This document shows, one piece after another, positions 2,103 to 63,732 of a stretch of 64,000 nucleotides of DNA (position 1 is the first letter of the stretch; every line of letters starts with the position of its first letter). Under the pieces are notes generated by a model. That model did not search any database, was not told where the DNA came from, and was given only the letters and a program-made list of their open reading frames with translations. The position numbers and the translations under genes were made by a program. This DNA is from Enterobacteria phage P922, in sequence record OR999189.1; one strand, given 5' to 3'.

Positions 2103-2905
<803 letters not shown>

Positions 2906-2963
2906 TGTTTACTTCCTCCAAGGGTTTTGATACTATACATTCATCAACTACTTGGAGGAAATT

Positions 2964-3377
2964 ATGACCCGTATCAATTTAACACTTGTTTCTGAATTGG
3001 CCGACCAACATCTTATGGCTGAGTATCGTGAATTACCACGCGTATTTGGTGCAGTCCGTAAACATGTTCAAAACGGTAAATGTGTAAAGGATTTTAAAAT
3101 CTCTCCAACATTTATATTAGGCACAGGTCACGTAACATTCTTTTACGACAAACTCGAATTTTTACGTTTACGTCAAATCGAGCTAATCGCTGAATGCTTG
3201 AAACGTGGTTTCAAAATCAAGGACACGACTGTCCAGGATATTTCCGACATCCCTGCCGAATTTCGTAATAATTATGTCCCGGACGAAGCGTCCATTGCGA
3301 TAAGTCAAGCACGCTTAGATGAAAAAATTGCTCAACGTCCTACTTGGTACAAATACTATGGTAAATCAATTTACTAA
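2964..3377 (+). CDS. denV: endonuclease V, pyrimidine dimer DNA glycosylase (DenV)
   Basis: [34 protein letters not shown]... matches T4 DenV; GGAGG RBS before ATG 2964. Confidence 0.92.
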
Positions 3378-3389
3378 GGAAAAATTAAA

Positions 3390-3644
3390 ATGTATCAAGA
3401 ATTTATCGCTGAAGCAGATGCCAAAGGCCCCAAATTTAAAGTTAAAGCTTTCATTGGTGATGCCGAAGATTTTGGCTCATTAAAACGTAATGGGTATTCT
3501 TTCTCAGGCGGCAATGGTAAAGAAATAAACACCTATGCAAAACGTAGTGAAATTGCTTATGTTGTAGTAAGCCCTAAAGTAGATGTTGACGATATTGGAT
3601 ACGATTTTAACAACTTCGGAATTATTTCTGGCGGTAAAGCTTAA
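3390..3644 (+). CDS. internal protein-like small protein
   Basis: Starts MYQEFIAEA, a CTS-like motif lacking the KT dipeptide; 84 aa. Confidence 0.55.
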   Translation: MYQEFIAEADAKGPKFKVKAFIGDAEDFGSLKRNGYSFSGGNGKEINTYAKRSEIAYVVVSPKVDVDDIGYDFNNFGIISGGKA

Positions 3645-3705
3645 ACAGTTTACGCTTAAGTATTAATATGGTATAATTACTCTATCAAAACAAACAAGGA
3701 AACAC

Positions 3706-4281
3706 ATGAAAACGTATAAAGAATTTATCGCTGAAGCTTCTGTGGAAAAGGCCAAAGGCATTAATAAAGATGAGTGGACTTACCGAGGAAATGGTTTTGA
3801 CCCTAAAACAGCCCCTATTGAACGATACTTAGCTACAAAAGCTTCCGACTTTAAAGCTTTCGCTTGGGAAGGACTTCGCTGGTGTACTGATCTAAATATT
3901 GAAGTTGATGGGCTTAAATTTGGCCATATTCAAGATGTTGTTGCTAGTAACTTGGACGCAGCTTTTGTTAAAGCTGACGGTGACCTTCGTCGCTGGAATT
4001 TAAAATTATTCTCTAAACAGAAAGGCCCAGTGTTTGTGCCTAAAGCTGGTAAATGGGTTATTGATAATAAATTAGCTAAGGCTGTCAACTTCGCCGGTCT
4101 TGAATTTGCCAAGCACAAATCGGCATGGAAAGGTCTTGATGCAATGGCTTTCCGTAAAGAATTCGCCGAGGTTATGACTAAAGGCGGCTTTAAGGCAGAA
4201 CTAGATACCTCTAAAGGTACGTTTAAAGACGCTAATGTTCAGTATGCTTACGCCGTTGCTAATGCAGCCCGTGGTAATTAA
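3706..4281 (+). CDS. ipIII: internal protein III-like (IPIII)
   Basis: MKTYKEFIAEASVEKAKGINKDEWTYRGNGFDPKTAPIERYLATKASDFKAFAWEGLRW... resembles T4 IPIII; CTS present. Confidence 0.8.
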   Translation: MKTYKEFIAEASVEKAKGINKDEWTYRGNGFDPKTAPIERYLATKASDFKAFAWEGLRWCTDLNIEVDGLKFGHIQDVVASNLDAAFVKADGDLRRWNLKLFSKQKGPVFVPKAGKWVIDNKLAKAVNFAGLEFAKHKSAWKGLDAMAFRKEFAEVMTKGGFKAELDTSKGTFKDANVQYAYAVANAARGN

Positions 4282-11996: not shown

Positions 11997-12518
11997 ATGT
12001 TTATTTCAAGTGAAAGCGGTTTAATTCGTGTTGAATTTAAAAATGACATCTTCCTTATTCAAGGAGATGATATTATTAAAATGAGTTATGACGAAATCAA
12101 GAAAATTTGTCATATTCTTGAAAGTCGTGGAAAAGGAAATGCTACTATCGATATAGGTGATTTATGGGTGACACTTTATGAAGTATCCGAAGGATTTAAC
12201 ATTGAAGATGAAAACAACATCTTAGCTATTGATAAAAGAAGTGATTTGTTTGATGTGTTAAAAGTTTATGAACAGTCAAACGGTGGAAGAAAAGCTGCAT
12301 TGATTTATCAAAAACCACATTCATGTGGAACTGCTTCAATCATTTCAAATATTGAAGATGAAACTGATACTTATATGTGTGTTTTAAAAGCTGGTGGTGA
12401 CCGTCATCCGGATTTTATTTCTATTCGTCAAAACAATGGAGAAATTTCATTATCAAAATCAGAAGCTGAAGCTATGATTAAGTATTTAACAACTGTTACA
12501 CCTTCAATGAAAGGATAA
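11997..12518 (+). CDS. hypothetical protein, tandem paralog B
   Basis: C-terminal KSEAEAMIKYLTTVTPSM similar to preceding ORF; GAGGAAAT RBS. Confidence 0.55.
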   Translation: MFISSESGLIRVEFKNDIFLIQGDDIIKMSYDEIKKICHILESRGKGNATIDIGDLWVTLYEVSEGFNIEDENNILAIDKRSDLFDVLKVYEQSNGGRKAALIYQKPHSCGTASIISNIEDETDTYMCVLKAGGDRHPDFISIRQNNGEISLSKSEAEAMIKYLTTVTPSMKG

Positions 12519-12520
12519 TT

Positions 12521-12982
12521 ATGATTATTAATGAAAGCTCTTGGCACTATAAATTATTCAAAATGTTTAATGATGAATGGAAACGACCTAAGACACTGTG
12601 TGCATACTTTTGGTCTATTGTTATCCCTACATTTTTCGTTTCTTTTTTCGGATGTACTATACTCGCAGGTCTAACTATTATCTGTGCAGAAATCATGCAG
12701 AAATGGTTTATTTATGGTAGTTTATGGACTCTTATTCCATCAGCATTTATACTTGCTATTTTGCTTGTTTTACTTATTATTGGTTCATTTGTTATTCCTG
12801 CACAACTACATGAAAAATATAAAGATTATAAATGGAAAAAGGATTATGCTTTACATGTAGAAAATATTGATAGGGCGTATAAAGGTTTACCTCCTATTCA
12901 ACCCAAGAAATCTATTATCGTCGAATTTTTAAAAACGCGTAAAGCTAAAGTATGTCCTGTTATTGAATATAAGGCTGAATGA
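12521..12982 (+). CDS. polytopic membrane protein
   Basis: Several long hydrophobic stretches; 153 aa. Confidence 0.55.
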   Translation: MIINESSWHYKLFKMFNDEWKRPKTLCAYFWSIVIPTFFVSFFGCTILAGLTIICAEIMQKWFIYGSLWTLIPSAFILAILLVLLIIGSFVIPAQLHEKYKDYKWKKDYALHVENIDRAYKGLPPIQPKKSIIVEFLKTRKAKVCPVIEYKAE

Positions 12983-28724: not shown

Positions 28725-28804
28725 CTGATTCATCCTCTATGCTTTAAGATAGATCTTCAAATATTATGATATAATAGATCTATGAATTGAGCTAAGAGGT
28801 GAAA

Positions 28805-29362
28805 ATGTCAGAAACTAAGCCTAAATATAATTACGTAAACAATAAAGAGCTTTTACAAGCTATTATTGATTGGAAAACAGAATTAGCAAATAATAAAGAC
28901 CCAAATAAAGTAGTTCGTCAGAATGATACTATCGGATTAGCCATTATGCTTATTGCAGAAGGCTTATCTAAACGTTTCAACTTTTCAGGATACACCCAAT
29001 CCTGGAAACAAGAAATGATTGCAGATGGTATAGAAGCTTCTATTAAGGGGCTTCATAATTTTGACGAAACGAAATATAAAAACCCACATGCATATATAAC
29101 TCAAGCTTGTTTTAATGCATTCGTCCAACGTATTAAAAAAGAACGTAAGGAAGTTGCAAAGAAATATAGTTACTTCGTTCACAATGTCTATGACAGTCGT
29201 GACGACGATATGGTTGCGTTAGTAGATGAAACTTTTATTCAAGACATCTACGATAAAATGACGCATTACGAAGAATCAACCTATAGAACACCGGGGGCTG
29301 AAAAGAAAAGTGTTGTAGACGATTCTCCTAGTTTGGATTTTTTATATGAGGCTAACGATTAA
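28805..29362 (+). CDS. 55: late-transcription sigma factor gp55
   Basis: 185 aa, [24 protein letters not shown]...; ATG 28805 follows GAGGTGAAA RBS. Confidence 0.93.
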
Positions 29363-30297: not shown

Positions 30298-31500
30298 ATG
30301 AAAGTATGTATTTTTATGGCTCGAGGTCTTGAAGGTTGTGGTGTAACTAAATTTTCTCTTGAGCAGCGTGATTGGTTTATTAAAAATGGTCATGAAGTAA
30401 CTTTGGTTTATGCTAAAGATAAATCATTTACTCGTAATTGCGCGCATGATTATAAGTCATTTTCAATTCCGGTTTTATTGGCAAAAGAATACGATAAAAC
30501 GCTTAAGCTGGTAAATGATTGTGATATTCTAGTTATCAATTCAGTTCCTGCTACTTCAGTCGAAGAAGACACAATTAATAACTATAAAAAAATTATTGAT
30601 AACATTAAACCTTCGGTTCGTGTTGTAGTTTATCAGCATGACCATTCTTCTCTTTCTTTGCGTCGAAATTTGGGATTAGAAGAAACTGTTCGTCGAGCTG
30701 ATGTTATTTTTAGCCATTCTGATAATGGTGACTTTAATAAAGTTTTGATGAAAGAATGGTATCCGGAAACTGTTTCTTTGTTTGATGATATTGAAGAAGC
30801 ACCGACCGTATATAACTTTCAGCCTCCTATGGATATTGCGAAGGTTCGATCAACCTACTGGAAAGATGTTTCTGAAATTAACATGAATATCAACCGTTGG
30901 ATTGGTCGTACTACTACATGGAAAGGCTTTTATCAGATGTTTGATTTTCATGAAAAACATCTTAAACCTGCAGGACTAAGTACTATTATGGAAGGTCTGG
31001 AACGTTCTCCAGCATTTATTCCTATTAAAGAAAAAGGAATTCCATACGAGTATTATCGTCTTCATCAAGTAGACCAAATTAAAATTGCTCCTAATTTGCC
31101 AACGCAAATTCTCGACCGTTATGTAAATAGCGAAATGCTTGAACGCATGAGTAAATCCGGATTTGGTTATCAGCTGAGTAAATTAGATAAAAAATATCTA
31201 CAGCGTTCTTTAGAATATACTCATCTCGAGCTTGGTGCATGCGGAACAATTCCAGTATTTTGGAAATCTACTGGCGAAAATTTAAAATTCCGTGTTGATA
31301 ATACTCCGTTAATTTCTCATGATAGCGGTATCGTTTGGTTTGATGAAAATGACATGGAATCAACATTTGAACGTATTAAAGAACTGTCATCTGACCGAGC
31401 TCTTTATGACCGTGAGCGAGAAAAAGCGTATGAATTTTTGTATCAACATCAAGATTCAAGCTTCTGCTTTAAAGAACAGTTTGACATTATTACAAAATAA
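30298..31500 (+). CDS. agt: DNA alpha-glucosyltransferase
   Basis: 400 aa, MKVCIFMARGLEGCGVTKFSLEQRDWFIKNGHEVTLVYAKDKSF... matches T4 alpha-GT as I recall it. Confidence 0.93.
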   Translation: MKVCIFMARGLEGCGVTKFSLEQRDWFIKNGHEVTLVYAKDKSFTRNCAHDYKSFSIPVLLAKEYDKTLKLVNDCDILVINSVPATSVEEDTINNYKKIIDNIKPSVRVVVYQHDHSSLSLRRNLGLEETVRRADVIFSHSDNGDFNKVLMKEWYPETVSLFDDIEEAPTVYNFQPPMDIAKVRSTYWKDVSEINMNINRWIGRTTTWKGFYQMFDFHEKHLKPAGLSTIMEGLERSPAFIPIKEKGIPYEYYRLHQVDQIKIAPNLPTQILDRYVNSEMLERMSKSGFGYQLSKLDKKYLQRSLEYTHLELGACGTIPVFWKSTGENLKFRVDNTPLISHDSGIVWFDENDMESTFERIKELSSDRALYDREREKAYEFLYQHQDSSFCFKEQFDIITK

Positions 31501-31501
31501 A

Positions 31502-31516
31502 GGGCTTCGGCCCTTT
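31502..31516 (+). terminator. rho-independent terminator
   Basis: GGGC-TTCG-GCCC then TTT. Confidence 0.65.
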
Positions 31517-31539
31517 AGCTTTATACGGAGTTTGATATA

Positions 31540-31680
31540 ATGATATTTCTTGGATATGTGATACTTTTTCTTGCATTTTATCTATTCACTAGAGCATGTT
31601 GGATTGGATTCTTTAGCACTCCAGATGGATTTATTTCAATAATTTTATTTTGCATTTCAATGACGGTTCTTGATATATGA
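31540..31680 (+). CDS. 46-aa hydrophobic peptide
   Basis: MIFLGYVILFLAFYLFTRACWIGFFSTPDGFISIILFCISMTVLDI; ATGA overlap with following GIY-YIG gene. Confidence 0.35.
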   Translation: MIFLGYVILFLAFYLFTRACWIGFFSTPDGFISIILFCISMTVLDI

Positions 31681-32300
31681 AAAAATATATAACTTATTTA
31701 ACAATATATAGTGGAGATAAACTTCCTCCTTTTTATATTGGATCTACATCTTTAGACAGGCATTTAGCCGGATATCATGGATCAGTTTTATCTAAAAAGT
31801 ATAAGAAAATTTATAATGAAGAACTTTCAAATAACCCACATTTATTTGATTCATGCATTTTAGATGAATTTGATACGCGCGAAGAAGCTATTAAATGCGA
31901 GCTATATTATCAACGTTTGCATGATGCGGTTAAAAATCCATTGTTCTTTAATATGTCATATGCTGCTCCAAAAGGTTCATTTGGAAGAGATATTAAAGGA
32001 CAAAATCATCCATTATATGGTTCTCATAATTGTAAAGGAAACATACATTCACATGACCCATTAACAGGAAAATCTGCCTTTTTACCATATATTCCAGAAG
32101 GTTATGTAAAAGGAAGGTCAAATAAATTTAAAGCTTCATCACATAATAAAGGTAAAAAATGGTATAATAATGGAGTTAAGCAAATGTTATGTCATGAACC
32201 TCCTGGTCCTGAATGGACAAAAGGAAAAATTAAAGAACTAGTTTCAAAAGCAGCTAAATTAGGATGGAAAAGATACCATGAAAATATTAAACTTGGGTGA
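31677..32300 (+). CDS. GIY-YIG homing endonuclease (Seg-like, free-standing)
   Basis: ITYLTIYSGDKLPPFYIGSTS...R...E...N GIY-YIG pattern; Lys/Gly-rich C-terminal region. Confidence 0.7.
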   Translation: MKKYITYLTIYSGDKLPPFYIGSTSLDRHLAGYHGSVLSKKYKKIYNEELSNNPHLFDSCILDEFDTREEAIKCELYYQRLHDAVKNPLFFNMSYAAPKGSFGRDIKGQNHPLYGSHNCKGNIHSHDPLTGKSAFLPYIPEGYVKGRSNKFKASSHNKGKKWYNNGVKQMLCHEPPGPEWTKGKIKELVSKAAKLGWKRYHENIKLG

Positions 32301-33297
32301 TTGGCATTTAGGCGTTAAAGCTGATGATGAATGGATTCGCGGTATTCAAATTGATGGAATTAAACAAGCGATAGAATATTCTAAGAAAAATGGAATTACT
32401 GTATGGATTCAATACGGTGATATTTTTGATGTACGAAAAGCGATCACGCATAAAACTATGGAGTTTGCTCGTGAAATAGTTCAAATGCTTGATGACGTTG
32501 GAATCACATTACATACTATTGTAGGAAATCACGATCTCCACTATAAAAATGTAATGCATCCAAATGCTTCTACTGAGCTTTTGGCTAAATATCCTAATGT
32601 TAAAGTATATGATAAGCCTACTACAGTAGATTTTGACGGATGTTTAATTGATTTAATTCCTTGGATGTGTGAAGAAAATACTGGTGAAATTCTTGAGCAC
32701 ATCAAAACTTCATCTGCTTCTTTTTGCGTCGGTCACTGGGAACTGAATGGATTTTATTTTTATAAAGGAATGAAATCTCACGGTCTTGAACCTGATTTCC
32801 TTAAGACTTATAAAGAGGTGTGGTCTGGTCACTTCCATACTATCTCTGAGGCTGCTAACGTCAGATATATTGGGACACCATGGACACTAACTGCAGGTGA
32901 CGAGAATGACCCTCGTGGGTTCTGGATGTTTGATACAGAAACAGAACGAATGGAATTTATTCCAAACAACACTACCTGGCATCGTAGAATTCATTATCCA
33001 TTTAAAGGAAAAATTGACTATAAAGATTTTACAAATCTATCAGTACGTGTTATAGTAACTGAAGTAGACAAAAATCTAACGAAGTTCGAATCTGAACTAG
33101 AAAAAGTTGTGCATTCATTACGAGTTGTGTCAAAGATTGATAACTCTGTCGAGTCAGATGACAGTGAAGAAGTTGAAGTTCAATCTCTTCAGACGTTGAT
33201 GGAAGAATACATTAATGCAATTCCAGACATCACTGATTCTGACCGTGAAGCACTTATTCAATATGCAAATCAGTTATATGTAGAGGCAACACAATGA
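32278..33297 (+). CDS. 47: recombination nuclease subunit gp47 (Mre11/SbcD-like)
   Basis: 339 aa; phosphoesterase motifs LGDWHLG, GNHD, GHWE...GH. Confidence 0.93.
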   Translation: MKILNLGDWHLGVKADDEWIRGIQIDGIKQAIEYSKKNGITVWIQYGDIFDVRKAITHKTMEFAREIVQMLDDVGITLHTIVGNHDLHYKNVMHPNASTELLAKYPNVKVYDKPTTVDFDGCLIDLIPWMCEENTGEILEHIKTSSASFCVGHWELNGFYFYKGMKSHGLEPDFLKTYKEVWSGHFHTISEAANVRYIGTPWTLTAGDENDPRGFWMFDTETERMEFIPNNTTWHRRIHYPFKGKIDYKDFTNLSVRVIVTEVDKNLTKFESELEKVVHSLRVVSKIDNSVESDDSEEVEVQSLQTLMEEYINAIPDITDSDREALIQYANQLYVEATQ

Positions 33298-42726: not shown

Positions 42727-43467
42727 ATGATTAACGATTATATGACAGTTGAAGAAATCCGTCTTGATTTGGGTCTTGCATTAAAGGAAAAAGATTTCGT
42801 AATTGATAAAACCGGTGTTAAAACTATTGAAATTATTGGTGCATCATTTGTAGCAGATGAACCTTTTATTTTTGGCGCTCTTAATGATGAATACATTCAG
42901 CGTGAACTTGAATGGTATAAGTCTCAAAGTTTGTTTGTTAAAGATATTCCAGGTGAAACACCAAAGATTTGGCAGCAGGTAGCATCTTCTAAAGGCGAAA
43001 TTAACTCGAATTATGGTTGGGCCATCTGGTCAGAAGATAACTATGCCCAATATGATATGTGTTTAGCTGAACTTGGTCAAAATCCTGATTCTCGACGTGG
43101 TATCATGATTTATACTCGTCCATCCATGCAGTTTGACTACAATAAAGATGGCATGTCAGATTTCATGTGTACGAATACAGTACAGTATCTGATTCGTGAT
43201 AAGAAAGTCAATGCAGTAGTAAGCATGCGTTCAAATGACGTGGTCTTCGGATTCCGTAATGATTATGCATGGCAAAAATACGTACTAGATAAATTAGTAT
43301 CTGATTTGAATGCAGGTGATTCAATTCGTCAGTATAAAGCAGGTTCCATTATATGGAATGTCGGAAGCCTTCATGTGTATTCCCGTCATTTTTATTTGGT
43401 TGACCATTGGTGGAAAACTGGCGAAACTCATATTGCGAAAAAAGATTATAACGGTGAGTGGAAATGA
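42727..43467 (+). CDS. 42: dCMP hydroxymethylase gp42
   Basis: 246 aa, thymidylate-synthase-like; between imm and the glucosyltransferase. Confidence 0.93.
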   Translation: MINDYMTVEEIRLDLGLALKEKDFVIDKTGVKTIEIIGASFVADEPFIFGALNDEYIQRELEWYKSQSLFVKDIPGETPKIWQQVASSKGEINSNYGWAIWSEDNYAQYDMCLAELGQNPDSRRGIMIYTRPSMQFDYNKDGMSDFMCTNTVQYLIRDKKVNAVVSMRSNDVVFGFRNDYAWQKYVLDKLVSDLNAGDSIRQYKAGSIIWNVGSLHVYSRHFYLVDHWWKTGETHIAKKDYNGEWK

Positions 43468-44306
43468 TTCAATTCGTAATTCCAAGTTATCAACGCGTAG
43501 GGGCAGTTTCTGCCCTTGATATGTTTCCATCTGATTATGAACCTCATATTGTAGTACGTAAACACGAAGAAAAAGCTTATTATGATGCTTATGGGTCTAG
43601 AGCTAAAATTATAACTATTCCTGATGATGTTAATGGAATTGCTGGTACTCGTAAAGCAATTACTGATATGTATGCAGGCCAACGAATCTGGATGATTGAT
43701 GATGATACTACTATTCGTATGAGTTCAATGCGAAAGAAAGATGATCGTCGTTGCGTAGATAAAATTAATCAATTAACTCGTGAACAGTTCTATGAATTGA
43801 TTCAATACGTTGAAGATGCCATGGATTGTGGGTATTATCACGGTCATGCTCGTCTACCTATTTTTAAAATTACTTCATCTTGGGGTAATTATCGTGAAAA
43901 TTCATATGGATTCACGAATACCTGGTATGACCTCGGAAAACTTACAACAGAACAAATTGGGTATGGAAAAATTGATTTATGCGAAGATATGTATGCATTT
44001 CTCAATTTAATTAATCAAGGTTATCCGCATTTGGCCTTGTTCAAATATCTGGTTGTATCTGGAAAAGCACAAGCTCCAGGCGGATGTAGCTCAATTCGTA
44101 GTAATTCTAAACATAATAGAGCTCTTGAGCAAATCAATAGAGAGTTTCCAGAGCAAGCTCGTTGGAAAACATCGAATATTGAAAAGAGAAAATCGTTGGG
44201 TGAAGAAGACGAGCCATTAAAGGTTCTTCGCATGTGTGTTTCGCGCAAAGAAAAATCAGAAGCGTTTCATAAGTTTAATGCTATTCATCCAATAGCAGTT
44301 GATTAA
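43464..44306 (+). CDS. glycosyltransferase at the beta-gt locus (non-T4 type)
   Basis: 280 aa, DxD-like WMIDDDTTI; does not resemble T4 beta-GT as I recall it. Confidence 0.6.
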   Translation: MIQFVIPSYQRVGAVSALDMFPSDYEPHIVVRKHEEKAYYDAYGSRAKIITIPDDVNGIAGTRKAITDMYAGQRIWMIDDDTTIRMSSMRKKDDRRCVDKINQLTREQFYELIQYVEDAMDCGYYHGHARLPIFKITSSWGNYRENSYGFTNTWYDLGKLTTEQIGYGKIDLCEDMYAFLNLINQGYPHLALFKYLVVSGKAQAPGGCSSIRSNSKHNRALEQINREFPEQARWKTSNIEKRKSLGEEDEPLKVLRMCVSRKEKSEAFHKFNAIHPIAVD

Positions 44307-50524: not shown

Positions 50525-50551
50525 TATTGCTTTATATATTTATTGTATAAT
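50525..50551 (+). promoter_or_regulatory. candidate MotA-dependent middle promoter for gene 56
   Basis: MotA-box-like TATTGCTTTA 50525-50534, then TATAAT 50546-50551. Confidence 0.4.
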
Positions 50552-50585
50552 TAATCTACTAACCCATGAATTGAAAGGAAAAATA

Positions 50586-51104
50586 ATGGCTTACTTTAAT
50601 GAATGTTCGCAACTGATCGAAGGCGCTGATAAAGCTCAAAATGAATACTGGGATATTCTCGGTGACGAAAAAGACCCACTGCAAGTTATGCTTGATATGC
50701 AGAAATCTTTGCAGGTTCGTTTAGCTAAAGATAAACCTGAATATAACCGTCATCCTGATGATTTGGCTACTGCAGGTGAAGTTGTTGATTGGCTGCGTAA
50801 TCAGAAAGATTATATTGACGATGAATTCCGTGAACTTCTGACTTCTCTTGGTGGTATGAGCAATGGTGAAAAAGATGCATCTGCTGTATGGAAGCCTTGG
50901 AAGTCGCAGCATGGTGAACGTCGTGAAACTCTGATTACTGATTTGTCTCCACAAGACCAGTTGGAAATTAAATTCGAAATGATTGATATTCTTCATTTCG
51001 TTCTGAACATGTTCCAAGGTCTCGGCCTTACTGCTGAAGAAATCTTTAAACTTTATTATCTGAAGAATGCTGAAAACTTCGCTCGTCAAGACCGAGGTTA
51101 TTAA
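50586..51104 (+). CDS. 56: dCTPase/dUTPase gp56
   Basis: 172 aa beginning MAYFNECSQLIEG; ATG 50586 within track ORF 50493..51104. Confidence 0.9.
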   Translation: MAYFNECSQLIEGADKAQNEYWDILGDEKDPLQVMLDMQKSLQVRLAKDKPEYNRHPDDLATAGEVVDWLRNQKDYIDDEFRELLTSLGGMSNGEKDASAVWKPWKSQHGERRETLITDLSPQDQLEIKFEMIDILHFVLNMFQGLGLTAEEIFKLYYLKNAENFARQDRGY

Positions 51105-51139
51105 ATATAAACGACGGCTTAAAAGCTGTGAGAATTTAT

Positions 51140-61914: not shown

Positions 61915-63732
61915 ATGATTAAGAATGAAATTAAAATTCTGAGCGATATTGAACATATCAAAAAGCGTAGCGGCATGTACATTGGCTCTTCCGCTAATGA
62001 AATGCATGAGCGCTTTCTGTTTGGTAAATGGGAAAGTGTTCAGTATGTACCTGGTCTTGTTAAGCTTATTGATGAAATTATCGATAACTCAGTAGATGAA
62101 GGTATTCGTACTAAGTTTAAATTCGCAAATAAAATTAATGTTACTATTAAAAACAATCAAGTAACAGTTGAAGATAACGGTCGCGGTATTCCACAGGCGA
62201 TGGTTAAAACACCTACTGGTGAAGAAATTCCTGGTCCTGTTGCTGCATGGACTATTCCAAAAGCAGGTGGTAACTTTGGTGATGATAAAGAACGCGTCAC
62301 TGGCGGTATGAATGGTGTTGGTTCTAGTTTGACAAACATTTTTTCTGTGATGTTTGTCGGTGAAACTGGTGATGGTCAAAATAATATTGTAGTTCGTTGT
62401 TCAAATGGCATGGAAAATAAATCATGGGAAACTATTCCAGGAAAATGGAAAGGAACTCGTGTTACTTTCATTCCTGATTTTATGTCATTTGAAACTAATG
62501 AGCTGTCCCAAGTTTATCTTGACATTACACTAGATCGTCTCCAGACACTTGCAGTAGTTTATCCTGATATTCAATTTACCTTTAATGGTAAAAAGGTTCA
62601 GGGCAATTTTAAGAAATATGCACGCCAATATGATGAGCATGCTATCGTTCAAGAACAAGAAAATTGCTCTATTGCGGTTGGTCGTTCACCGGATGGTTTT
62701 CGTCAATTAACTTATGTGAATAACATTCACACTAAGAATGGTGGCCATCACATTGACTGTGTTATGGATGATATTTGTGAAGACCTTATTCCACAAATCA
62801 AACGTAAGTTCAAAATTGATGTGACTAAAGCACGCGTTAAAGAATGTTTGACTATCGTTATGTTTGTCCGTGATATGAAAAACATGCGATTTGATTCTCA
62901 AACTAAAGAGCGTTTGACTTCTCCATTTGGTGAAATCCGTAGTCATATTCAACTTGATGCTAAAAAGATTTCACGTGCTATTCTAAATAATGAAGCAATT
63001 CTAATGCCGATTATTGAAGCTGCTTTGGCTCGTAAATTAGCGGCAGAAAAAGCAGCAGAAACTAAAGCAGCTAAAAAGGCTTCTAAAGCTAAGGTTCATA
63101 AACATATTAAAGCGAATCTTTGTGGTAAAGATGCTGATACTACTCTTTTCTTGACTGAGGGTGATTCGGCTATCGGATATCTTATTGATGTTCGTGATAA
63201 AGAACTTCACGGTGGTTATCCATTACGTGGTAAAGTTCTCAACAGTTGGGGTATGTCATATGCTGACATGCTTAAAAACAAAGAACTGTTTGATATTTGC
63301 GCAATCACTGGATTAGTTCTCGGTGAAAAAGCTGAAAACTTGAATTATCATAATATTGCTATTATGACTGATGCTGACCATGATGGTCTAGGAAGCATTT
63401 ATCCTTCTCTGCTTGGATTTTTTAGTAATTGGCCAGAACTGTTTGAGCAAGGACGAATTCGCTTTGTCAAAACTCCTGTAATCATCGCACAGATTGGTAA
63501 AAAACAAGAATGGTTTTATACAGTCGCTGAATATGAGAGTGCTAAAGATGCTCTACCTAAACATAGCATCCGTTATATTAAAGGACTTGGCTCTTTGGAA
63601 AAATCTGAATATCGTGAGATGATTCAAAATCCAGTATATGATGTTGTTAAACTTCCTGAGAACTGGAAAGAGCTTTTTGAAATGCTCATGGGAGATAATG
63701 CTGACCTTCGTAAAGAATGGATGAGCCAGTAG
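61915..63732 (+). CDS. 39: DNA topoisomerase II large subunit gp39, unsplit (39 plus 60-equivalent)
   Basis: ~605 aa continuous ORF with GHKL ATPase N-terminus and Toprim-like C-terminus; ATG 61915 after GAGGATAA RBS. Confidence 0.9.
   Translation: MIKNEIKILSDIEHIKKRSGMYIGSSANEMHERFLFGKWESVQYVPGLVKLIDEIIDNSVDEGIRTKFKFANKINVTIKNNQVTVEDNGRGIPQAMVKTPTGEEIPGPVAAWTIPKAGGNFGDDKERVTGGMNGVGSSLTNIFSVMFVGETGDGQNNIVVRCSNGMENKSWETIPGKWKGTRVTFIPDFMSFETNELSQVYLDITLDRLQTLAVVYPDIQFTFNGKKVQGNFKKYARQYDEHAIVQEQENCSIAVGRSPDGFRQLTYVNNIHTKNGGHHIDCVMDDICEDLIPQIKRKFKIDVTKARVKECLTIVMFVRDMKNMRFDSQTKERLTSPFGEIRSHIQLDAKKISRAILNNEAILMPIIEAALARKLAAEKAAETKAAKKASKAKVHKHIKANLCGKDADTTLFLTEGDSAIGYLIDVRDKELHGGYPLRGKVLNSWGMSYADMLKNKELFDICAITGLVLGEKAENLNYHNIAIMTDADHDGLGSIYPSLLGFFSNWPELFEQGRIRFVKTPVIIAQIGKKQEWFYTVAEYESAKDALPKHSIRYIKGLGSLEKSEYREMIQNPVYDVVKLPENWKELFEMLMGDNADLRKEWMSQ

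Follow-up and report, generated by a model that had tools for sequence, protein, structure and literature searches.

A SegE-like GIY-YIG homing endonuclease gene between genes 47.1 and 47 of a T4-like phage, with the start of gene 47 as its probable target

In phage T4, the stop codon of gene 47.1 overlaps the start codon of gene 47 (ATATGAAAATTTTAAAT...), and the T4 annotation places no gene between them. In Enterobacteria phage P922, an intact 207-codon ORF occupies this junction, raising the questions of what it encodes, how it came to lie there and whether it acts on the gene next to it. The stretch of DNA analysed here (64,000 nucleotides of record OR999189.1, hereafter the window) is a T4-like (Tequatrovirus) segment, collinear with the T4 genome from ~69.1 kb to 2.2 kb in reversed orientation. 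The order of genes around the ORF is 55, a-gt.5 to a-gt.2, a-gt, a 46-codon ORF, the 207-codon ORF, 47, 46.2, 46.1 and 46 (Table 1). The a-gt stop codon is followed by a hairpin, which a program scan flagged on the minus strand only. The first-pass annotation of this DNA had described an ORF downstream of the a-gt hairpin and of a hydrophobic 46-codon micro-ORF, and all of these elements are present as claimed. The micro-ORF is strongly hydrophobic (GRAVY 1.73), as stated, but its description needs one correction: nearly identical in sequence to its T4 counterpart, it is the ordinary, conserved T4 gene 47.1, a resident of the locus lying outside the insertion described below. Since 47.1 is this upstream micro-ORF, the 207-codon ORF is not the syntenic 47.1 ortholog. 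The 47.1 stop codon overlaps its start (ATATGA), and the N-terminus of the encoded protein reads MKKYITYLTIYSGDKLPPFYIGSTS.

Table 1. Coordinates of the features discussed, in positions of the window
Feature	Position	Strand	Remarks
Gene 55	28799-29362		
a-gt	30298-31500		Pfam AGT, E 5e-236
Hairpin after a-gt	31498..31517	.	8-bp G+C stem, UUCG loop; annotated as terminator in the G28 and GiZh records
Candidate MotA-type middle promoter	31514..31541	+	TTTAGCTTTA, 12 nt, TATAAT; 1 mismatch; also in T4
Gene 47.1, 46-aa predicted membrane protein	31540..31680	+	phrog_6693, E 1.5e-31; T4 NP_813808 at the same position
Endonuclease gene, free-standing, SegE-like GIY-YIG type, 207 aa	31677..32300	+	Intact ORF, ATG start
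Predicted N-terminal GIY-YIG catalytic domain, residues 1-100	31677..31976	+	
Basic C-terminal region, presumed DNA-binding, residues 101-207	31977..32297	+	pI 9.9
Insertion relative to T4, 601 bp, ATG to ATG	31677..32277	+	7-nt ATGAAAA repeated at both ends
Gene 47, Mre11/SbcD-like nuclease subunit	32278..33297	+	Pfam Metallophos match (residues 1-187), T4 annotation
Gene 47 codons 3-6, recoded, which bound the element on the right and belong to its probable target	32284..32295	+	Inside the 3' end of the endonuclease ORF

Alignment of the window with T4 displays 200 nt of near-identical sequence up to ATGAAAA, 601 extra bases, and then gene 47. The ATG of the 207-codon ORF is the one that gene 47 uses in T4, and the new start of gene 47 (ATGAAAAT...) lies inside the last 23 nt of the ORF. 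The 601-bp insert has the same length and position in all seven carriers compared (the window and phages FriedrichMiescher, GiZh, ECO4, G28, phiC600P9 and REP3), and the seamless T4-type junction, with its exact ATGA overlap, is found in all seven non-carriers (T4, T2, RB3, AR1, ECP2301, Shfl2 and teqsoen). In the phage collection, 68 of the 532 Tequatrovirus records matching the flanks (13%) possess the insert, and an independent search using the empty T4 junction as query yielded nine split matches among the 54 close relatives listed. The 207-codon gene is a presence/absence polymorphism with exact boundaries, and T4, T2 and RB3 are devoid of it. An insertion at a site where T4 has no seg gene had been surmised in the first-pass annotation, and the comparison with insert-free relatives bears it out, as T4 47.1 runs straight into 47. 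Two records with seemingly degenerate copies, which might have spoken for a homing cycle, were set aside: in KNP5, the apparent 124-bp deletion within the endonuclease gene consists of undetermined bases (N), and ERS-1 is an UNVERIFIED_ORG record with indels in both the endonuclease gene and gene 47.

Such a distribution could also arise by loss instead of mobility, if the gene were ancestral at the 47.1/47 junction and had been deleted from T4, T2 and most of their relatives. The occurrence of homologs upstream of gene 47 in distant genera is in line with this scenario, as is a divergence of the gene matching that of its flanks. However, the empty sites are without exception seamless, exact ATGA overlaps of 47.1 and 47, and they occur on several flanking haplotypes. 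Conversely, several carrier haplotypes are distinguished within the 50 nt upstream of the insertion, some of them shared with non-carriers, and the distribution is patchy even within species-level clusters. In Dhakavirus, the upstream neighbour of gene 47 varies as well, being 47.1 (JS98), the endonuclease gene without 47.1 (QL01, IME08 and NC-G), or neither of them (dhaeg and AnYang). Ancestry followed by deletion is therefore considered very improbable. Furthermore, loss through recombination with an empty allele belongs to the normal life cycle of homing genes, and would leave the identity of the gene unchanged.

The fold predicted for the N-terminal 100 residues is that of a GIY-YIG domain, with I-TevI, UvrC, Eco29kI and T4 EndoII as best structural matches. 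The model exhibits the expected α/β architecture, in which helices flank a sheet of three strands, as they do in I-TevI and UvrC. Residues Y7, Y20-I21-G22, E75 and N92 are invariant in 34 out of 34 family members. Y7, the tyrosine of the "GIY" motif (here ITY), aligns with Y6 of I-TevI, and Y20-I21-G22 with its Y17-V18-G19. N92 has N90 of I-TevI and the Seg Asn as its counterparts, whereas E75 aligns with the conserved Seg Glu, one column off E75 of I-TevI. The pattern proposed in the first-pass annotation, GIY-YIG followed by conserved R, E and N, thus stands for the tyrosine, the YIG, the glutamate and the asparagine, but only in part for the arginine. Position 28, the counterpart of I-TevI Arg27, is R in 10 members, K in 17 and N, Q or E in seven, a basic residue being found in only 27 of the 34. 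In the model, R28 is located in the first turn of the helix following strand 2, like Arg27 in I-TevI. Another arginine, R68, is situated two turns ahead of E75 and retained by 33 of the 34 members; it might substitute for the catalytic one. In the same alignment, SegA to SegE likewise lack a residue aligned to I-TevI R27. As SegA, SegB, SegC and SegE, which share this trait, are listed as active (PMC2988022), the imperfect arginine need not be disqualifying. Apart from this position, the catalytic residues are present in the protein, as is the predicted endonuclease fold.

Profile searches return the family at some distance from the reference models. The Pfam GIY-YIG model (PF01541) matches the protein with 19.8 bits, below the 22.6 cutoff (E 1e-3), and 11 of the 34 family members at E <= 0.01, the best at 2.4e-5. 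The subfamily is a divergent one, as is SegE, which has a Pfam model of its own. This latter model (SegE_GIY-YIG) does not match the 207-aa protein, nor does any NCBIfam model, and sequence and profile searches of the PDB with this protein returned nothing relevant. Among phage protein families, it matches phrog_10820 (E 2e-93) and phrog_314, labelled "homing endonuclease" (E 8e-18). NUMOD3 DNA-binding repeats, typical of this class of enzymes, are present in 18 of the 34 relatives scanned. The predicted fold, the conserved residues and the homology to T4 Seg proteins described below concur in identifying the 207-codon ORF, with high confidence, as a Seg-type GIY-YIG homing endonuclease gene.

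The label of phrog_10820 itself is "HNH endonuclease", a product name also carried by many related records, and according to the RefSeq and PHROG-based labels the 207-codon gene would be an HNH endonuclease gene. The HNH Pfam models, however, do not match the protein at E values up to 1, while its fold and conserved residues are those of GIY-YIG enzymes and its homology is to Seg proteins; the T4 Mob proteins match nothing in the window. That the protein belongs to the HNH class is thus hardly credible. Judged from sequence and model, the "HNH endonuclease" label of the phrog_10820 family is wrong, and it is spreading through RefSeq re-annotations and PHROG-based pipelines. The names given in GenBank to genes of the same family are "hypothetical protein", "putative homing endonuclease" and the erroneous "HNH endonuclease". 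Members of the family include QXV78884 of phage Bas39 FriedrichMiescher ("putative homing endonuclease"), those of KP185 ("homing endonuclease") and TG1 ("GIY-YIG homing endonuclease"), and gp060 of QL01.

The C-terminal region (residues 101-207) is basic, as the first-pass annotation had it, with 20 K+R versus 7 D+E, and is presumed from its sequence to bind DNA. It harbors the motifs IPEGYVKGR and KKWYNNG, which are common to SegE (VPEGFVKGM, FWVNNG and IPDGFIKGR) and to the C-terminus of SegB. It is modelled as β-hairpins and a terminal helix, and no solved structure in the PDB resembles this part of the model.

As to expression, the candidate middle promoter (Table 1) belongs to a pattern, a MotA-like box together with TATAAT, that is encountered 17 times in the window versus 6.6 expected. 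Its function as a MotA-type promoter can be inferred from the published consensus. In phage QL01, the sequence TTTGCTTTA, followed 11 nt later by TAAAAT, is found directly upstream of the endonuclease copy. A scan of the region for sigma-70 promoters found no more sites than in shuffled sequence. Transcription from middle promoters has been reported for other free-standing endonuclease genes of T4, with which the candidate promoter would fit (PMC2988022). Since the ATG of the endonuclease gene overlaps the stop codon of 47.1, its translation is probably coupled to that of 47.1, as is the translation of gene 47 in T4.

The target of the enzyme is suggested by its neighbour. Full-length homologs are found directly upstream of gene 47 in other phage groups, with a start overlap of 14-23 nt: in Klebsiella phage SmallBear (68% identity), in Dhakavirus QL01, IME08 and NC-G (~61%) and in Aeromonas phage L9-6 (51%). 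What precedes them varies: it can be a-gt with a small ORF, only a-gt.2, or different small ORFs. Relatives similar in the N-terminal domain alone reside elsewhere: that of Yersinia phage TG1 precedes the topoisomerase gene, and that of Citrobacter phage Moon is flanked by gp19 and gp20.

Of the 362 variable sites in 2.86 kb of flanks, just three separate all seven carriers from all seven non-carriers as fixed differences, and these lie at nt 9, 15 and 18 of gene 47 (positions 32286, 32292 and 32295). All three changes are synonymous and affect third codon positions; nt 10 differs too in six of the seven carriers. Gene 47 starts with ATGAAAATTTTAAATTTAGGT in non-carriers and with ATGAAAATA(C/T)TAAACTTGGGT in carriers, MKILNLG being encoded by both. 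The sole record combining the insert with T4-type codons 3-6 is ERS-1, unverified and rich in indels. In Dhakavirus, the same codons are recoded, as the start of gene 47 reads ATGAAAATTCTTAATAC(G/A)GGT in three carriers and ATGAAAATATTAAACACAGGT in three non-carriers. The bases of carriers and non-carriers swap places between the two genera at nt 9 and 15, and the first 15 nt of gene 47 in Dhakavirus non-carriers are identical to the carrier sequence of the window. This exchange suggests different specificities in the two sub-lineages, within the small samples on which the assignment of the target is based (7+7 and 3+3 genomes). Furthermore, the diversity in the first three 100-nt segments of gene 47 is 1.8, 3.7 and 1.6% in carriers versus 6.7, 4.2 and 11.6% in non-carriers, whereas it is not lower in carriers beyond 300 nt of gene 47 or upstream of the insert. 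A lower diversity of carriers in the start of 47 is as expected if co-conversion runs mainly into this gene.

The stretch in question encodes the N-terminus of gp47 (MKILNLGDWHLG), within the Metallophos match. This segment presumably contains metal-binding motif I of calcineurin-like phosphoesterases. Homing endonucleases usually target codons that cannot change. Altogether, these comparisons place the probable cut site in the first ~30 nt of gene 47, and active homing with the gene 47 start as target appears likely. The recoded codons, which lie inside the ORF of the element itself, may nevertheless simply travel with it instead of being immunity changes.

The proposed cycle would take place in mixed infections, during which genomes lacking the endonuclease gene would be cut by the enzyme within or close to the first ~30 nt of gene 47, which code for the conserved metal-binding motif MKILNLGDWH. 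The break would be repaired by T4 recombination with the carrier genome as template, and the recipient would thereby acquire the endonuclease gene along with some of the neighbouring gene 47 sequence. The carrier copy would be spared, as the upstream half of its site is replaced by the insertion and codons 3-6 of its gene 47 are synonymously recoded. A bias in marker inheritance is predicted from the behaviour of SegB, SegE, SegF and SegG (PMC2988022, PMC2330249); in practice, crosses would be expected to show local exclusion of markers around a-gt, 47 and 46.

The pairwise dN/dS of the endonuclease gene is 0.06 (dN 0.0054, dS 0.092; seven genomes), close to the value of 0.02 for each of the flanking 47 and a-gt genes. 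All seven copies sampled are intact, and the protein is under purifying selection. The dS of the gene is close to that of the flanks, which points to a residence about as long as the divergence of the flanks; the gene is thus not a remnant in decay, nor has it arrived only very recently. Given this equality, a recent sweep is not apparent.

A long residence, suggested by the equal dS, would also suit a protein descended from a homing endonuclease that no longer homes and is kept for the translation start of 47 or for another role, such as exclusion of competitor phages or DNA repair. The canonical arginine is not strictly conserved, and loss of the gene would need a clean deletion, as the start of gene 47 is inside the ORF. 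Host-gene signals embedded in homing endonuclease genes favour their retention, according to Edgell et al. (PMC2988022), and retention by this route fits a protein that has ceased to home. However, a dN/dS of 0.06 and catalytic positions invariant across the 34 members are too constrained for a mere ribosome-binding-site spacer, 87% of relatives thrive without the gene, and it occurs at the same target gene in four phage groups and with several haplotypes in its flanks. A retired enzyme thus appears unlikely, although less so than either of the two alternatives discussed above. On balance, the 207-codon gene is best explained as coding for a SegE-like homing endonuclease, probably active and probably directed at the 5' end of gene 47.

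A more general hypothesis can be formulated tentatively, and is at present rather doubtful: a Seg-like lineage might have become dedicated to the first ~30 nt of gene 47 in at least four T4-like groups (Tequatrovirus, Dhakavirus, Klebsiella phages and Aeromonas Biquartavirus), the element inserting exactly at the start codon of 47 and usurping its translation start while providing a substitute start in its own 3' coding end, with codons 3-6 recoded in its own manner in each sub-lineage. If this were true, the specificities would have diverged in an arms race at a 10-bp patch. Moreover, the element could then alter the expression of its own repair machinery, because gp47 resects homing breaks.

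The remainder of the window offers several observations on mobile elements. The counterpart stretch in T4 (2.2-69.1 kb) carries mobA (at the split 39/60), segF, segA, mobB, mobC, the nrdD intron with I-TevII, and mobD. None of these is present in the window, and no Seg/Mob/I-Tev homolog other than the 207-codon ORF was found in its 64,000 nt. The genome is endonuclease-poor like T2, yet it possesses one endonuclease gene that is absent from T4. At 63332-63397, there is no counterpart of T4 2793-3911, which comprises mobA, 60.1 and the beginning of gene 60 with its translational-bypass region; the gene of the topoisomerase large subunit consequently appears unsplit in the window. The position of T4 mobD is occupied at 11997-12982 by two ORFs (173 and 153 aa, the second hydrophobic) without similarity to the T4 sequence there. 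Between 42 and uvsX, where T4 has b-gt and segA, a 282-aa ORF (43458-44306) may code for a T2/T6-type glucosyltransferase, which would imply a glucosylation pattern unlike that of T4. Gene 56 (50546-51111) is 76% identical to T4, versus 93-96% for its neighbours, and segF is absent beside it. Gene 56 is the target of SegF, and the window would show the T2-type, SegF-sensitive arrangement.

Closer to the locus, T2 (3156-3411 of the stretch retrieved) and G28 (3757-4011) have another annotated homing endonuclease gene between 46.1 and 46, ~1.5 kb downstream of the 47.1/47 site; the window has none there. The catalogued T4 endonuclease genes are segA-G, mobA-E and I-TevI to I-TevIII (15 in total), none of them at 47.1/47, and the nearest is mobB, between a-gt.2 and a-gt (PMC2988022), which is missing from the window. 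With the gene found in T2 and G28, T-even phages have at least three alternative sites for the insertion of an endonuclease gene in the interval from a-gt to 46.

The literature search found no paper naming or testing a 47.1/47 endonuclease, and the names segH-segL returned unrelated papers only; the T4 mobile-element review and the T4 genome-comparison review mention no endonuclease at this junction. With this gene, the T-even repertoire of free-standing GIY-YIG homing endonucleases grows by one, and the locus is new to the T4 catalogue. Carriers and non-carriers constitute a clean natural system in which the candidate target, the start of a Mre11-like nuclease gene, is sharply delimited. The marker exclusion predicted above matters for the recombination or engineering of T-even phages, those of the BASEL collection included. 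No concept is changed, since the uneven spread of such genes among T4 relatives is already textbook knowledge (PMC2988022, PMC2993671).

Copies at the same site in ~67 Tequatrovirus records are 96-99% identical, and the homologs upstream of gene 47 in other genera are 51-71% identical. [quoted passage not shown] I-TevI is, furthermore, intron-encoded, and its DNA-binding domain, made of a zinc finger, a minor-groove helix and a helix-turn-helix, is absent from the 207-aa protein. At the sequence level, the family profile matches none of SegF, I-TevI and I-TevII. The resemblance to T4 Seg endonucleases noticed in the first-pass annotation is confirmed by hhalign, which ranks SegE as the closest T4 relative, with a probability of 97.0% (E 1.2e-10) over residues 18-190 versus 15-198 of SegE, hence across both domains. 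The other Segs follow with SegG at 93.6%, SegC at 90.3%, SegA at 90-97%, SegB at 84% and SegD at 71%. SegA, SegB, SegC, SegD and SegG share a homologous N-terminal domain with the protein (71-94% probability), and SegA-E the short helix after the YIG strand. In contrast, SegA-D possess NUMOD3-type C-terminal repeats, and the Seg loci and targets are also different. The "intronless homing" lifestyle of the Seg genes (PMC2988022, PMC2330249) is the one proposed here.

SegE and the 207-aa protein have in common the YIGxxS...GYxGS core, the positions of E and N, and the C-terminal PEG[FY]VKG and W(Y/V)NNG motifs. Their pairwise similarity is weak, however (phmmer E ~1e-5 in a nine-sequence search), and the 207-aa protein displays an extended first strand (YITYLTIYSGDKLPPF). 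SegE resides at another locus, between inh and uvsW, and the presumed target is gene 47 here versus uvsW. Both genes are nonetheless free-standing, lie just upstream of a conserved gene of DNA metabolism and are uneven among T-even phages. Putative homing endonuclease genes are well established to be scattered unevenly among the close relatives of T4 (PMC2993671), and the 47.1/47 gene is an unnamed new member of the well-known Seg-like class and an ordinary example of it.
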